Made by a program: the position numbers and the translations under genes | NCBI RefSeq assembly: GCF_053078305.1 | Contig: NZ_CP166879.1 | DNA: 64,000 bases | Strand: one strand, 5' to 3' | Shown here: positions 5,886 to 35,070 of the stretch, in pieces | How the letters are laid out: each line of letters opens with the position of its first letter | Position numbering within the stretch: the stretch's first letter is position 1 | The notes under the pieces: model-generated | Seen by the model: only the letters and a program-made list of their open reading frames with translations | Database searches by the model: none | What the model was told of the DNA's origin: nothing

Positions 5886-6200
5886 TCACGAATGGCGATA
5901 ATCAGCACTGATATCTCCGTTACGACAACGCCAGTTGTACACCTCCACAACCTCACTGAATCCGGCCACAAGTTCAGCCGTAACAGCGATGGAATCGCCC
6001 AGGCTGCGCAGTTCGTCCATGTCAGGATCAATGCTGTCACTCATGCCAGAAAGTAAGCGCCCTGTGATAGCCAGCCCTTCAAGCAGTTTGCGGGCGTAGA
6101 AATCAGCATCATCAAACATCGCTCTCGCTTCCCGTGCGTCAGCTGCTTTTATGGTTGTAACCAGTTGTTCAAGTATTCTGGTGTTACACACATCACGCAT
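5886..6200 (-). CDS. Hypothetical acidic protein translationally coupled to icd-like 1
   Basis: 104-aa ORF. Its ATG lies 5 nt before the icd-1 stop (ATGCGTGA, 6200-6193), the same geometry as P1 icd-ant coupling. Confidence 0.5.
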   Translation of the reverse strand: MRDVCNTRILEQLVTTIKAADAREARAMFDDADFYARKLLEGLAITGRLLSGMSDSIDPDMDELRSLGDSIAVTAELVAGFSEVVEVYNWRCRNGDISADYRHS

Positions 6201-6363
6201 GACTCACCCCCTCACGAATAAGGGTGACAAAAATCAGATGGGTGTGCGGAAGTTGTGCGCGTGCTTCGTGCTCAGTGGCAGCGGTAACGGTGAATATTGC
6301 AATGCTGCCTGTCAGGCACTGCATAAAGCGCCAGACAAAGTAAGGGCGTGCGGATACAGCCAT
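6193..6363 (-). CDS. Icd-like (host cell-division-inhibitor-like) small protein, copy 1
   Basis: 56 aa MAVSARPYFVWRFMQC...TVTAATEHEARAQLPHTHLIFV.... AGGAG lies 8 nt upstream of the ATG at 6363. The ORF track shows an in-frame 164-aa extension that I interpret mainly as RNA. Confidence 0.65.
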   Translation of the reverse strand: MAVSARPYFVWRFMQCLTGSIAIFTVTAATEHEARAQLPHTHLIFVTLIREGVSHA

Positions 6364-6371
6364 GTGAAAGG

Positions 6372-6586
6372 CTCCTATGTTTGAGGTAAGGAGTCTCGCT
6401 ACTACGCTGCTAAACATGGTGGCGAGACGTAACAGGGTTAGCAGACTGGCAACATAGAAACCAGCGAGCGCAAAGGCTCCCCCGTTACGCCCCGCCATAA
6501 TGCGGGTATGGGTAGGTTTACGGACACAAAAAAACCGCATATCGGAATGTAAGCGGCTGTCCGCTATGTTATTCAGGCTGCTAAAC
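6372..6586 (-). ncRNA. c4-like antisense RNA cassette 1 (targets, antisense core, SD-overlapping target)
   Basis: Plus-strand text: targets ctatgtt at 6564-6570 and 6375-6381, and ctgctaa at 6578-6584 and 6407-6413. Antisense aacatag at 6451-6457 and ttagcag at 6438-6444. Exact reverse complements. The distal target overlaps the icd-1 SD. Confidence 0.6.
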
Positions 6587-6649
6587 CCGGTCGCCATGTG
6601 GGTGACTCCGGCATCATACAGCCCGAAAGAAGAGGCGATCAACATGTTT

Positions 6650-6820
6650 TTATCCATGTGATGCCTCCTGACGGATACGGGCGACAAAAATCAGATGTGC
6701 GTGCGGCAGCCGGGCGCGTGCTTCGTGCTCAGTGGCAGCGGTAACGGTGAATACATCGATGTTACTGTGGTGGCACTGCATAAAGCGCCAGACAAAGTAA
6801 GGGCGTGCGAATACAGCCAT
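6650..6820 (-). CDS. Icd-like small protein, copy 2
   Basis: 56 aa MAVFARPYFVWRFMQCHHSNIDVFTVTAATEHEARARLPHAHLIFV.... AGGAG lies 8 nt upstream of the ATG at 6820. Confidence 0.65.
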   Translation of the reverse strand: MAVFARPYFVWRFMQCHHSNIDVFTVTAATEHEARARLPHAHLIFVARIRQEASHG

Positions 6821-6828
6821 GTGAAAGG

Positions 6829-7043
6829 CTCCTGTAGTGAAATTAAGGAGTCTCGCTACTACGCTGTCAAACATGGTGGCGAGACGTAACAGGGTTGACA
6901 GACTGGCACTACAGGAACCAGCGAGCGCAAAGGCTCCCCCGTTACGCCCCGCCATAATGCGGGTATGGGTAGGCTTACGGACACAAAAAAACCGCATATC
7001 GGAATGTAAGCGGCTGTCCGCTGTAGTATTCAGGCTGTCAAAC
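6829..7043 (-). ncRNA. c4-like antisense RNA cassette 2
   Basis: Targets ctgtagt at 7021-7027 and 6832-6838, and ctgtcaa at 7035-7041 and 6864-6870. Antisense actacag at 6908-6914 and ttgacag at 6895-6901. The backbone is nearly identical to cassette 1. Confidence 0.6.
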
Positions 7044-7106
7044 CCGGTCGCCATGTGGACGACTCCGGCATCATACAGCCCGAAAGAAGAGGCGATCAAC
7101 ATGTTT

Positions 7107-7295
7107 TTAAGCATGACTCACCCCCTGACGAATACGGGCGGCGAATACAGCGACACAACCGGACGGGCAACGGTTACGCGCTTCGCGTTCCGTCCAGGCG
7201 GTTACGTGGATGATTTGACGTTCTGACGTGCCAAAGGTGATAAAGCGCCAGATAAAGGCGGTTTGAGAATGTACGAGGGCAGGGGTAGTAGCCAT
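7107..7295 (-). CDS. Icd-like small protein, copy 3 (diverged)
   Basis: 62 aa MATTPALVHSQTAFIWRFITFGTSERQIIHVTAWTEREARNRCPSGCVAVFAARIRQGVSHA. AAGGAGG lies 8 nt upstream of the ATG at 7295. Confidence 0.6.
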   Translation of the reverse strand: MATTPALVHSQTAFIWRFITFGTSERQIIHVTAWTEREARNRCPSGCVAVFAARIRQGVSHA

Positions 7296-7303
7296 GATGG
7301 CAG

Positions 7304-7514
7304 CCTCCTTTATCGTTGGGATATACCCACCGCTGGAGGTTCCAATCTCGCTGGCGGTGGACTGCACGGAGTTGGAACTACTGGCGATAAAGGAAACCAG
7401 CCTGACCGAAGTCAGCCCCATACAGCCCACCATTGATAAGGTGTGCGTGTGCGCCGATACAAAAAAAGACGCGTTCGGCGTCTGTATCGCCTTTATCTCC
7501 AGCGGGGTTCCAAT
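7304..7514 (-). ncRNA. c4-like antisense RNA cassette 3 (diverged backbone, same architecture)
   Basis: Targets cctttatc at 7490-7497 and 7307-7314, and gttccaa at 7507-7513 and 7339-7345. Antisense gataaagg at 7386-7393 and ttggaac at 7372-7378. Strong hairpin GACGC-CGAAC-GCGTC plus U7 at 7461-7482. Confidence 0.55.
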
Positions 7515-7825
7515 CCCGACACCCGTTTTATGAGGTGCGCGGGAATCATAGCCATTTTTGATACTGGCGATCAACTGATTTTCTCTGGCGGGTATTTGGC
7601 GCGGATGCCTGTTACCTGTGGCAATATACACACGACTGTATACAATACACATCGGTTAACTCCTTATATTCCGTTGATGGCCCGTAGTGTTATTGCATTG
7701 CGGGTATTTTTTACCTGCCGTTAATTGAATGCGGCAAGGCATCACGACGGTTAACCCGTTTTGCATAACGTGAGGCGTTTTATTTTCTGCGCTGGTGGCT
7801 TTTATATTTCACATATGGGAATTTA

Positions 7826-8166: not shown

Positions 8167-9063
8167 TCAGTCGTCAACGTCTGCAAGCCACTTACCTATG
8201 CATGTTGGTGTGGCACCGATATCAACGCCTGCTTTGGTTAGTGCGCGGCTTAACTTGCTGTGACCGTTTTCAAGCGCCCTTCGTGGGTTTGACGCCTCTT
8301 CTTCTCCGGCTATAGCGGTGATTAGTCTTTTGATAACTCTGGCCTGAAGATTGGTTGTTTTCTTTGATGGGGGTGGTTTATTGATGTTTAATTCATCCAT
8401 GTTTTCAATAGAAGCGGTACGCCCTCCGTTTATGGCTAAATCTATCTCACTTCTGGAAATAAAAATATCGTTACGTGATATATCCCATCCCTGTAATAAA
8501 ATCGCAGCTTTAAAATCATCCTCGTCATCGTTATCGATTATCTGAATGTATTTAGTATTTGTTGTATCGTGAAATGATAATCTTTCAATGTCTGCGCTGT
8601 TAGCCTTTACATTAAGCAATCCATCAGCTTTAACATATATTTCTTTTGCGGGTGTTATTATTTGTGCGTTTTTTATCTCTGGCTCATCTTCAGCAAAAAT
8701 ATTCATGCTGAAATAATCACCATATGATGAGTAATGATAGTTTATGTTGAGTCCTGCATGTGCATAATAAAAAACATCTATTGGAGTGAGTAGCTTATTT
8801 ATAGATGTGGCATCAATGATTACATTGCAATATTCATTTGTGTAATGCTGGTATAATGTTTTATTAGCACTGATAAGCTCAGGCTTTACCCCTTCATAAT
8901 ACTTTAATGTCAGTTTTTCATTTATATTAATGCGATACAAAAAACGCATCCTCCTCGTAGCGATGAAATGAAGCAAATCATCAACGTCACACTCAAGCCT
9001 TCTGGCTGCCTTGTCTAACGGGTAATAATCCCTTTCAGGAAGGTTTATTTTTTTGTTTGCCAT
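8167..9063 (-). CDS. AT-rich orphan protein of unknown function (island cargo)
   Basis: 298-aa ORF starting 4 nt after the integrase stop. Its central part is visibly more AT-rich than neighbouring genes. I recognise no motif. Confidence 0.6.
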   Translation of the reverse strand: MANKKINLPERDYYPLDKAARRLECDVDDLLHFIATRRMRFLYRININEKLTLKYYEGVKPELISANKTLYQHYTNEYCNVIIDATSINKLLTPIDVFYYAHAGLNINYHYSSYGDYFSMNIFAEDEPEIKNAQIITPAKEIYVKADGLLNVKANSADIERLSFHDTTNTKYIQIIDNDDEDDFKAAILLQGWDISRNDIFISRSEIDLAINGGRTASIENMDELNINKPPPSKKTTNLQARVIKRLITAIAGEEEASNPRRALENGHSKLSRALTKAGVDIGATPTCIGKWLADVDD

Positions 9064-10531: not shown

Positions 10532-10607
10532 TGGTGGCCCCTGCTGGACTTGAACCAGCGACCAAGCGATTATGAGTCGCCTGCTCTAACCACTGAGCTA
10601 AGGGGCC
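10532..10607 (-). tRNA. ileX: tRNA-Ile2 (anticodon CAU, lysidine-modified)
   Basis: 76-nt GGCCCCTTAGCTCAGTGGTTAGAGCAGGCGACTCATAATCGCTTGGTCGCTGGTTCAAGTCCAGCAGGGGCCACCA. Full cloverleaf, encoded CCA, located between mug and yqjH as in K-12. Confidence 0.93.
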
Positions 10608-22908: not shown

Positions 22909-23063
22909 GTCGGATGCCTGGCGTTGTCCACGATTGCGTAGGCCGAATAAGGCGTTCACGCCGCATCCGGCAATCAACGCCTGATGCGACGCTTGCGCGT
23001 CTTATCAGGCCTACAACTGTCGTTGACGTGTAGCCGGATAAGGCGTTTACGCCGCATCCGGCA
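22909..23063. repeat. BIME (cluster of REP elements)
   Basis: Three REP-like units (ggccgaataaggcgttcacgccgcatccggca, gatgcgacgcttgcgcgtcttatcaggcctac, gccggataaggcgtttacgccgcatccggca). Confidence 0.75.
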
Positions 23064-30886: not shown

Positions 30887-30966
30887 CCGGAAAGCGGTTC
30901 ACAGATCTCGCTTCGTACATGGCAGGCCTATTGACGCTGTTGTTTTTTCAACCTAGAGTAAAGGAA

Positions 30967-31108
30967 CAAGGGTAAGGGAGGATTTCTCCCCCCTCTGATG
31001 AGTTGTTAGTAAGTCGGGAAACTTAACAGTAACAACACAACCAGTATGATGACGAGCTTCATCATAACCCTTTCCTTCTATAAGGCCCCTTCCTCGGGAG
31101 GGGCTTTC
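30967..31108 (+). ncRNA. sibE: Sib antisense antitoxin RNA (ends approximate)
   Basis: Fully overlaps ibs on the opposite strand. GC-rich hairpin ggcccct...aggggc plus T-rich tail near 31084-31108. Confidence 0.55.
31006..31065 (-). CDS. ibsE: Ibs type I toxin, 19 aa MMKLVIILVVLLLLSFPTY
   Basis: Hydrophobic 19-aa ORF below the track cutoff. K-12 order is yqiK-ibsD/sibD-ibsE/sibE-hldE. The D versus E assignment rests on position only. Confidence 0.7.
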   Translation of the reverse strand: MMKLVIILVVLLLLSFPTY

Positions 31109-31341
31109 CCGTTTCAGCCCCTTGCTGACTCCCCGATTGTTGATGAGCGCCGGACCCCGCGCAACGCTTTCCCTGAAGCAGTTTTGCCTTCCCCGAGCGG
31201 TCACGCAAAACGCTGCAACGTCCTGAGCATTTGCACCTTTTAGCGGAACGCAGATATAAAAAATCCCCGGCTTTTTGGGCCAGGGATATGCGTTAATGAA
31301 ACCTTCTTGACGCTGATTTTTTTTCAACCTAAAGTAAAGGA

Positions 31342-31483
31342 ACAAGGGTGAGGGAGGATTTCTCCCCCTCTGATTGGCTGTTAATAAGCTGCGAAACTTA
31401 CGAGTAACAACACAATCAGTATGATGACGAGCTTCATCATAACCCTTTCCTTATACAAGGCCCCTTCTTCGGGAGGGGCTTTC
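31342..31483 (+). ncRNA. sibD: Sib antisense antitoxin RNA (ends approximate)
   Basis: Same architecture as the first copy. Confidence 0.55.
31381..31440 (-). CDS. ibsD: Ibs type I toxin, 19 aa MMKLVIILIVLLLVSFAAY
   Basis: Second copy, 375 bp from the first. Confidence 0.7.
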   Translation of the reverse strand: MMKLVIILIVLLLVSFAAY

Positions 31484-34920: not shown

Positions 34921-35070
34921 GCTTATTCTCAGGGCGGGGCGAAATTCCCCACCGGCGGTAAATCAACTCAGTTGAAAGCCCGCGAGCGCTTTGGGTGCGA
35001 ACTCAAAGGACAGCAGATCCGGTGTAATTCCGGGGCCGACGGTTAGAGTCCGGATGGGAGAGAGTAACGA
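34921..35070 (+). promoter_or_regulatory. FMN riboswitch (RFN element) in the ribB leader
   Basis: gcttattctcagggcggggcgaaattccccaccggcggtaaa...ccggggccgacggttagagtccggatgggagagagtaacga carries the conserved RFN helices and lies upstream of ribB. Confidence 0.9.

Follow-up and report, generated by a model that had tools for sequence, protein, structure and literature searches.

Terminator-type hairpins in the leaders of three tandem IsrK-C4 cassettes and a conserved helix that encloses them

Introduction

A stretch of 64,000 nucleotides from contig NZ_CP166879.1 (NCBI RefSeq assembly GCF_053078305.1), hereafter called the window, carries three tandem units of about 457 nt each on the minus strand, from position 7574 to position 6193 as read directly on both strands. 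Every unit is composed of a promoter, an IsrK-like leader with the antisense target sites a1 and b1, a GC-rich hairpin followed by a run of seven uridines (U7), a spacer of about 25 nt, a C4-type antisense RNA, the target sites a2 and b2 together with the Shine-Dalgarno sequence (SD), and an Icd-like open reading frame (ORF). A preliminary description of this DNA had drawn attention to the hairpin between the upstream target pair and the antisense RNA, and the question raised by the locus is which role a hairpin with a U-tract plays at this position.

With a probability of roughly 75% in our estimate, the hairpin and its U-tract form the Rho-independent leader terminator of an immunity cassette of the IsrK-C4 type, corresponding to seqA-t1-CI of P4 and a1b1-c4 of P1, and this terminator is modulated by C4. 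It is of an already described kind; here, three of them are found in a row, and the conserved helix by which they are enclosed is a small new detail.

Family assignment of the leader and antisense RNAs

The RNAs of the three units were assigned to families using the Rfam models isrK (RF01394, gathering score 50 bits) and C4 (RF01695, gathering score 45 bits). The leader of unit 3 matches the isrK model in full length (positions 1-77) and passes its threshold with 63.8 bits, and the C4 RNAs of all three units lie above the C4 gathering score (72-78 bits). All three units align to all three helices of the isrK model, and RNAfold gives the same helices. The final 22 positions of the model consist of a GC hairpin and a U-run, which is exactly the feature studied here. 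Furthermore, the c4-a1b1 family (RF03163) matches the two 5′-most hairpins in each of these leaders, below its gathering score, with 29.3 bits in the case of unit 2. The leader of unit 3 is ordered into hairpin 1, the a1 hairpin, b1 and the terminator. A promoter-like site is located upstream of each leader, and its -10 box ends 7 nt ahead of the start of the isrK model in all three units. The coordinates of all features are listed in Table 1.

Within each unit, the C4 RNA contains exact complements of 7-10 nt to a1, b1, a2 and b2, the last of which lies on the SD. Units 1 and 2 have the same sequence across the hairpin stretch and are near-identical elsewhere outside of the target and antisense loops, a pattern that suggests a swapping of specificity. 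Unit 1 shares its a-site (UUAGCAG, 6578-6584) with P7 and unit 2 its a-site (UUGACAG, 7035-7041) with P1, and the b-sites of both units are unlike those of either phage. For the C4 loop CCUUUAUCGCC of unit 3, two overlapping pairing registers exist in the leader (7484-7497), namely GAUAAAGG, which is b1, and GGCGAUA. The latter register takes in the 5′ arm of the outer helix described below, and the same feature is present in phage ASU11.

The hairpin and the U-tract

On the minus strand, unit 3 reads CGAUAC-A-GACGC-CGAAC-GCGUC-U7-GUAUCG, and units 1 and 2 read CGGACA-GCCGC-(14 nt)-GCGGU-U6-G-UGUCCG. As sequence criteria for an intrinsic terminator, a GC-rich stem of at least 5 bp, a short loop and at least five U directly after the stem were used. 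By these criteria, the hairpin of unit 3 has the features of an intrinsic terminator (6-bp stem, 5-nt loop, U7, -7.4 kcal/mol), as the preliminary description had proposed for GACGC-CGAAC-GCGTC and the following U7. Direct reading of the sequence confirmed all of its coordinates, including the A7 runs on the plus strand of units 1 and 2 (6528-6534 and 6985-6991) with the outer arms CGGACA/UGUCCG, and the weaker inner hairpin that it had noted in these two units agrees with the predicted energies (about -6.3 versus -7.4 kcal/mol in unit 3).

Downstream of the leader promoter and upstream of the C4 gene, the hairpin immediately follows the target to which the antisense RNA is complementary. As first described, the leader of the antisense immunity cassette indeed contains a hairpin of the terminator type between a1/b1 and C4. 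The 5′ arm of the outer helix directly adjoins the b1 target, as had also been stated for units 1 and 2. A distance of 6-7 nt separates the end of b1 from the terminator stem, and among 87 homologues distances of 6-8 nt are the most frequent. The further claim that the hairpin keeps its place in all three cassettes holds in a restricted sense: since units 1 and 2 are identical across the hairpin stretch, only two independent versions are present in the window.

The position was consequently compared in a pool of 149 sequences, comprising the three of the window, 15 named phages and loci from IMG/VR that were collected by an Icd-anchored scan and an isrK-pattern scan. The Icd ORF and the isrK DNA pattern were used as anchors instead of an nhmmer profile of the C4 sequences of the three units, which detected C4 in only 42 of 80 IMG/VR loci. 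A GC hairpin followed by T5 or longer was found at the expected place in 142 of the 149 pooled sequences. In addition, all 12 phage loci that were fetched contain isrK and C4 in tandem, separated by 22-26 nt; the phages bearing this tandem include Stx phages, P27, mEp460, ASU11, P7, phiKO2, PY54 and a Yersinia phage. Phage F039 has the isrK-C4 tandem as well, and both RNAs are annotated in its record.

The strength of the U-tract varies within the family, because the run is interrupted in P1 and P7 (UAUUUUU) and in two IMG/VR loci found by the isrK pattern (L135 and L192, GGUUAUUAU), compared to U6-7 elsewhere. The large terminator loop of most P1-type cassettes, i.e., units 1 and 2, P1, P7 and variants from IMG/VR, contains the motif UCCGAUA (6540-6550 and 6997-7007 on the minus strand of the window, 8292-8302 in locus L083). 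This motif is replaced in the wastewater contigs L217 and L218, and a partner sequence for it was not found.

The enclosing outer helix

In all three units, the terminator is enclosed by a second helix, which the preliminary description had recognized. In unit 3, it comprises 6 bp (7489-7484 with 7460-7455), one pair more than previously listed. The minimum free energy structures calculated with RNAfold contain the inner stem and the outer helix together in all three units (local z-scores -3.0 to -3.3), and both are retained in the folds of the whole leaders of 249 nt. The Rfam consensus of isrK stops at the U-run and does not include the outer helix.

For the analysis of covariation, 40 diverse sequences were aligned with plain MAFFT from the sequence only, with no structure fitted. 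The outer helix corresponds to columns 53-59 with 87-93 of this alignment, and 77% of its cells are standard pairs, which is similar to the terminator stem with 75%. As a control, the 3′ partners were slid by 1-3 columns, upon which at most 46% of the cells were paired over the whole structure. Six of the seven outer-helix pairs vary on both sides, with G-C (16) versus C-G (12) at one pair and A-U (18), G-C (12) and G-U (6) at another. About 34 outer-helix cells are G-U, which pair in the transcribed sense only. In a swap test, in which the register was re-optimized for every pairing of flanks, cognate flanks reached 5.83 versus 4.29 for non-cognate flanks, and 0 of 2000 permutations, uncorrected for shared ancestry, reached the observed mean. 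The arms observed include CGAUAC/GUAUCG, CGGACA/UGUCCG, GCGACA/UGUCGC, GCACAU/AUGUGC, GCUGAC/GUCAGC, CGAUAUG/CAUAUCG and CGGCC/GGCCG. Judged from the compared sequences, the outer helix is real and covaries across about 100 IsrK-C4 loci.

An inverted repeat on the DNA level, serving as a site for a protein, was also considered and ruled out. The arms vary freely yet stay complementary, and G-U pairs occur in the transcribed sense only, which argues for an RNA helix. This helix would form only in read-through RNA, where it would stack on the terminator stem and leave U7 as an internal loop. It may give the leader the shape of a closed hinge that links the target strand to C4, or act as a determinant for processing or for Hfq/RNase E.

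Predicted anti-terminator in units 1 and 2

The folds of nascent RNAs began at the first position of the isrK match, except in P1, where 7 nt ahead of it were included, and stopped where the 3′ arm of the terminator is complete. For units 1 and 2, the hairpin AGCGG-ACAG-CCGCU is predicted as an anti-terminator. Its 5′ arm is formed by the last two nucleotides of b1 and the start of the outer arm, and its 3′ arm includes the CCGC of the terminator; in unit 2, A7022 and G7021 are common with b1 and CCGC is common with the terminator. The predicted energies of the two structures are close, with -6.4 to -6.9 kcal/mol for the anti-terminator and -6.3 to -6.6 kcal/mol for the terminator. In the free RNAs, the terminator stem has a predicted probability of 0.10 and 0.06, which increases to 0.96 upon masking of a1/b1, and only 1 of 30 linker shuffles is as low in terminator probability as the native sequence. 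By prediction, units 1 and 2 resemble a classical attenuator, in which anti-terminator and terminator exclude each other, in having an upstream hairpin of comparable stability that shares bases of the terminator 5′ arm. Furthermore, the closing pair of the anti-terminator covaries among P1-type sequences (A-U, G-C and U-A).

For unit 3, an anti-terminator switch was not predicted: the terminator probability is 0.93 free and 0.96 masked, and the native value is not below that of shuffled linkers. In 87 homologues in which a1/b1 were masked, the terminator probability rose by more than 0.3 in 29 and fell by that much in none.

Comparison with known systems

One of the closest known arrangements is that of P4, in which the parts follow each other in the same order (PLE - seqA - t1 - CI RNA - seqC). 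The comparison with the premature-termination immunity of P4, which had already been drawn, fits: P4 has a homologous hairpin within an isrK match (60.8 bits, NC_001609 8692-8615) upstream of the CI RNA, which is itself a C4 match (8507-8420, 74.9 bits). The hairpin reads GACGCG-CCA-CGCGUC followed by U7 and is enclosed by the outer helix GCGACA/UGUCGC. In addition, the antisense RNA of P4 carries loops that complement its targets, and the cassette lies in the leader of a replication operon beside an integrase. P4 differs in having one cassette, a distance of 107 nt from the terminator to CI instead of about 25 nt, and neither an Icd-like ORF nor a predicted anti-terminator. Its 107-nt insert (8508-8614 in L081) contains a second AUUAUGGUGUGG motif, which resembles the start of the C4 5′ arm. 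Briani, Ghisotti and Deho are said to have described t1 in 2000 as a Rho-independent terminator between PLE and cI. Its efficiency reportedly needs CI RNA and seqA, with CI RNA stimulating it in vitro, and t1 is said to serve the autoregulation of CI.

The layout of units 1 and 2 is that of the immI operon of P1 and P7 (P51b - a1 b1 - c4 - a2 b2 - icd - ant), with Icd downstream and a2/b2 at the SD. Between the annotated b1 and c4, and with the same spacing to c4, the P1 sequence contains GCGGACA, ACCGCAG..UUGCGGU, AUUUUU, G and UGUCCG in this order. P1 and P7 differ from the units by the interrupted U-run and by a longer inner stem (-7.5 kcal/mol), and P1 furthermore by its single cassette and by being a plasmid prophage. 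In the P1 record, a1/b1 are annotated only as 'putative' targets and no terminator is annotated.

The anti-immunity locus of N15, phiKO2 and PY54 (CA RNA - icd - antA/B) contains isrK and C4 matches with the same spacing, and a 'putative terminator' is annotated in the phiKO2 record exactly on the homologous hairpin. In contrast to the locus studied here, these phages are linear plasmid prophages, and their only cassette is followed by antirepressor genes.

For Gifsy-1 of Salmonella, whose IsrK belongs to the same RNA family (RF01394), both the terminator and a downstream RNA of similar size have been shown by experiment. The 77-nt IsrK ends at this terminator, part of the transcripts extend beyond it, and downstream of it a second RNA of about 80 nt (STnc1160) is generated by processing (PMC4825925). 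Hershko-Shalev et al. 2016 pointed out the likeness to seqA/CI of P4 and speculated that the C4-like downstream RNA modulates the termination of IsrK (PMC4825925). In contrast to the locus in the window, the short RNA of Gifsy-1 is described as a translation activator of the read-through mRNA orf45-anrP, and antirepressor and Q-type functions are located downstream in place of Icd and replication genes.

Proposed mechanism and alternative explanations

With the hairpin as a C4-modulated leader terminator, transcription would begin at the promoter of each cassette. Some of the transcripts would end at the U-tract and give rise to an IsrK-like RNA of about 77-80 nt bearing the a1/b1 targets, and read-through would yield the C4 precursor and the Icd-like mRNA as well as, after the last cassette, the mRNA of the replication genes. 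If C4 pairs with a1/b1 while the leader is being transcribed, termination would be raised, and both the synthesis of C4 itself and the expression of the genes downstream would be limited. On the nascent RNA of units 1 and 2, the anti-terminator AGCGG-ACAG-CCGCU would form first; C4 bound at b1 would remove two of its five pairs, and the CCGC freed in this way would close the weak terminator before U7. In unit 3, the strong terminator is predicted to form regardless.

Several observations weigh against this explanation. The leaders of units 1 and 2 stay below the isrK gathering threshold (33.3 and 32.3 bits), and their hairpins are weak (5 bp, 14-nt loop, about -6.3 kcal/mol, U7). A terminator scan with loops of 3-8 nt calls unit 3 only (7483-7467) and misses the other two, and by itself the scan is no better than chance (6 sites versus 3.8 +/- 1.6 in shuffles). 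For this reason the case rests on the homologues, for which shared ancestry was left uncorrected in the permutation tests. The anti-terminator is not family-wide, with a native terminator probability of 0.65 versus 0.78 for shuffled linkers and a lower value in 61 of 114 homologues. It is not predicted for unit 3, P1 or P4, where the terminator is predicted to form regardless, and in SJ46, a P1-like phage, a C.A mismatch takes the place of the covarying closing pair. Because P4, reportedly a case of antisense-stimulated termination, has no predicted anti-terminator, the real mechanism may differ. Finally, the constitutive expression of the C4-like RNA of Gifsy-1 did not relieve the toxicity of IsrK (PMC4825925), so that the test made by the authors of the termination idea themselves was not supportive.

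With respect to the low isrK scores, the alignment of units 1 and 2 to the model contains a 13-nt insertion within the terminator loop, and P7 is likewise under the threshold with 43.7 bits. By its alignment, the P1-type leader is a divergent relative that the isrK model covers poorly.

Among the alternatives, a constitutive leaky terminator without antisense control survives best. It would set a fixed ratio of short to read-through RNA and insulate the cassettes from each other, with C4 acting on translation at a2/b2 only. Translational repression of icd at a2/b2 is the documented action of P1 c4 and counts for this explanation, as do unit 3, P4 and many homologues, for which the terminator is predicted to form masked or unmasked. 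It would also agree with the location of each downstream cassette's terminator, about 100 nt past the upstream Icd stop, and with the Gifsy-1 co-expression test, which did not support a control of termination (PMC4825925). However, a1/b1 would be left without a job, though they are conserved beside the terminator in every member of the family, and in the P1-type units the predicted anti-terminator overlaps b1. The dependence of P4 t1 on CI RNA, as reported, likewise speaks against it. A purely constitutive terminator is rather unlikely on this balance, but has to be taken seriously.

Far less probable is the attenuation model of the preliminary description, in which antisense pairing at a1/b1 chooses the outer helix as an anti-terminating alternative to the terminator. 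The general idea of attenuation matches known work, and the conservation of the outer helix, with its 5′ arm directly adjoining b1, would speak for a switch of this kind. The proposed choice between outer helix and terminator fails, however, in the comparison of the alternative structures with RNAfold: one helix encloses the other, and each predicted fold contains both. Intrinsic termination is decided while the U-tract is still within the RNA:DNA hybrid. At that moment the 3′ arm of the outer helix, which lies beyond the U-tract, has yet to be transcribed, and a helix that surrounds the terminator in this way cannot compete with it.

That the stretch codes for protein, either an 'Ash family protein' or Icd-like proteins from long ORFs (154-181 aa), with the hairpins being incidental, can be dismissed almost entirely. 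In favour of coding, ORFs 7652-7107, 7114-6650 and 6687-6193 run through whole cassettes, Pfam Phage_ASH (PF10554) matches aa 35-129 of the first of these, and in a related island PGAP annotates both an 'ash family protein' and an Icd-like protein of 154 aa. However, the Phage_ASH match covers exactly the region of the isrK and C4 RNAs, and in units 1 and 2 the long ORFs match no family outside of the C-terminal Icd domain. In addition, three RNA families match with their structure, and the helices covary, with G-U pairs that fit the transcribed strand only. The stretch matching the 'Ash protein family' PF10554 in the window (7266-7550, minus strand) corresponds to isrK, C4 and a2/b2, and such stretches are also present in L216 (3049-3375) and L081 (8168-8584). 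The P4 record labels the ORF over the CI RNA 'cI/ash', which is known to be an RNA gene. The Ash protein family looks like the translation of a conserved RNA locus.

The array and its genomic surroundings

Judging from the window and from family matches, the array is part of an integrative island. In the order of transcription, the island comprises tRNA-Met, an integrase, a 298-aa ORF, AlpA and the three cassettes, followed by a translationally coupled 104-aa ORF, DUF4222, an AAA_25-domain protein and SSB. The counterpart of the AAA_25-domain protein in a related island is annotated as a RepA-family helicase. The 104-aa ORF (5886-6200, minus strand) has no family match; its ATG overlaps the stop codon of the Icd-like ORF of unit 1, the last in the array (AUGCGUGA), and it occupies the position that ant has after icd in P1.

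A related E. coli island has the same gene order and two cassettes. Cassettes of similar kind are found in 1047 of 5426 complete E. coli genomes, and the annotated copy number ranges from 2 to 4 Icd-like genes. For the three-cassette array, no end-to-end match was detected in this collection of 5426 genomes, and the best match (96.5%) has two cassettes. The Sib RNAs, the FMN riboswitch, the naRNA4 element and tRNA-Met(CAU) of the window represent ordinary E. coli chromosomal surroundings.

Table 1. Features of the three cassettes and of their surroundings in the window.
Feature	Position	Strand	Description or basis
Unit 3 promoter	7545-7574	-	sigma-70-like, TTGATC-N18-TATGAT; hexamers common to all three cassettes
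Unit 3 IsrK-like leader RNA	7462-7538	-	RF01394, 63.8 bits; complementarity to own C4
Unit 3 targets a1, b1	7513-7507, 7497-7490	-	UUGGAAC, GAUAAAGG
Unit 3 outer helix, 5′ arm	7484-7489	-	CGAUAC
Unit 3 terminator	7461-7483	-	AGACGC-CGAAC-GCGUCU, -7.4 kcal/mol; U tract 7467-7461
Unit 3 outer helix, 3′ arm	7455-7460	-	GUAUCG, downstream of U tract
Unit 3 C4-type antisense RNA	7350-7437	-	RF01695, 77.6 bits
Unit 3 targets a2, b2	7345-7339, 7315-7306	-	b2 overlapping SD
Unit 3 Icd-like ORF	7107-7295	-	62 aa; NCBIfam NF033153, E = 3.7e-16
Unit 2 promoter	7070-7099	-	TTGATC-N18-TATGAT
Unit 2 IsrK-like leader RNA, P1-type	6985-7063	-	RF01394, 32.3 bits, E = 9e-5 in local search
Unit 2 targets a1, b1	7041-7035, 7027-7021	-	UUGACAG, ACUACAG
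Unit 2 predicted anti-terminator	7009-7022	-	AGCGG-ACAG-CCGCU; prediction and N1/N2 covariation
Unit 2 outer helix	6978-7020	-	CGGACA (7020-7015) / UGUCCG (6983-6978), around terminator and U7
Unit 2 terminator-like hairpin	6985-7014	-	GCCGC-(14 nt)-GCGGU; U7 6991-6985
Unit 2 C4-type antisense RNA	6872-6959	-	RF01695, 72.3 bits
Unit 2 Icd-like ORF	6650-6820	-	56 aa; NF033153, E = 6.9e-15
Unit 1 promoter	6613-6642	-	TTGATC-N18-TATGAT
Unit 1 IsrK-like leader RNA, P1-type	6528-6606	-	RF01394, 33.3 bits, E = 4.9e-5 in local search
Unit 1 targets a1, b1	6584-6578, 6570-6564	-	UUAGCAG, AACAUAG
Unit 1 predicted anti-terminator	6552-6565	-	AGCGG-ACAG-CCGCU; prediction and covariation
Unit 1 outer helix	6521-6563	-	CGGACA (6563-6558) / UGUCCG (6526-6521)
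Unit 1 terminator-like hairpin	6528-6557	-	GCCGC-(14 nt)-GCGGU; U7 6534-6528
Unit 1 C4-type antisense RNA	6415-6502	-	RF01695, 73.3 bits
Unit 1 Icd-like ORF	6193-6363	-	56 aa; NF033153, E = 9.4e-12
tRNA-Met(CAU)	10532-10607		adjoining the island integrase
naRNA4 repeat element	22941-23011		
Sib antitoxin RNAs	30931-31455		two in tandem
FMN riboswitch	34921-35069		

Significance of the locus

Since the finding falls within a known regulatory family, no new class of element needs to be claimed. For the immunity of phages and satellites, it contributes two modest details, namely the outer helix, which the family models omit, and the predicted anti-terminator of the P1-type cassettes, which overlaps b1. 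In mechanistic terms, the outer helix is to be corrected from a competitor of the terminator to a helix that does not compete with it. Moreover, 'Ash family protein' calls in databases coincide here with a conserved RNA locus.

A more far-reaching proposal is put forward tentatively and is more doubtful than probable. According to it, the outer helix would be a functional element of the read-through precursor, its 5′ arm in P1-type cassettes would constitute half of an anti-terminator gated by b1, and the cassettes would be self-contained attenuators. If this is true, three antisense-switched attenuators in series, each with its own specificity, would act as a triple lock on the replication operon of the island. 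The predicted anti-terminator would also give a job to the long-unexplained a1/b1 sites of P1.

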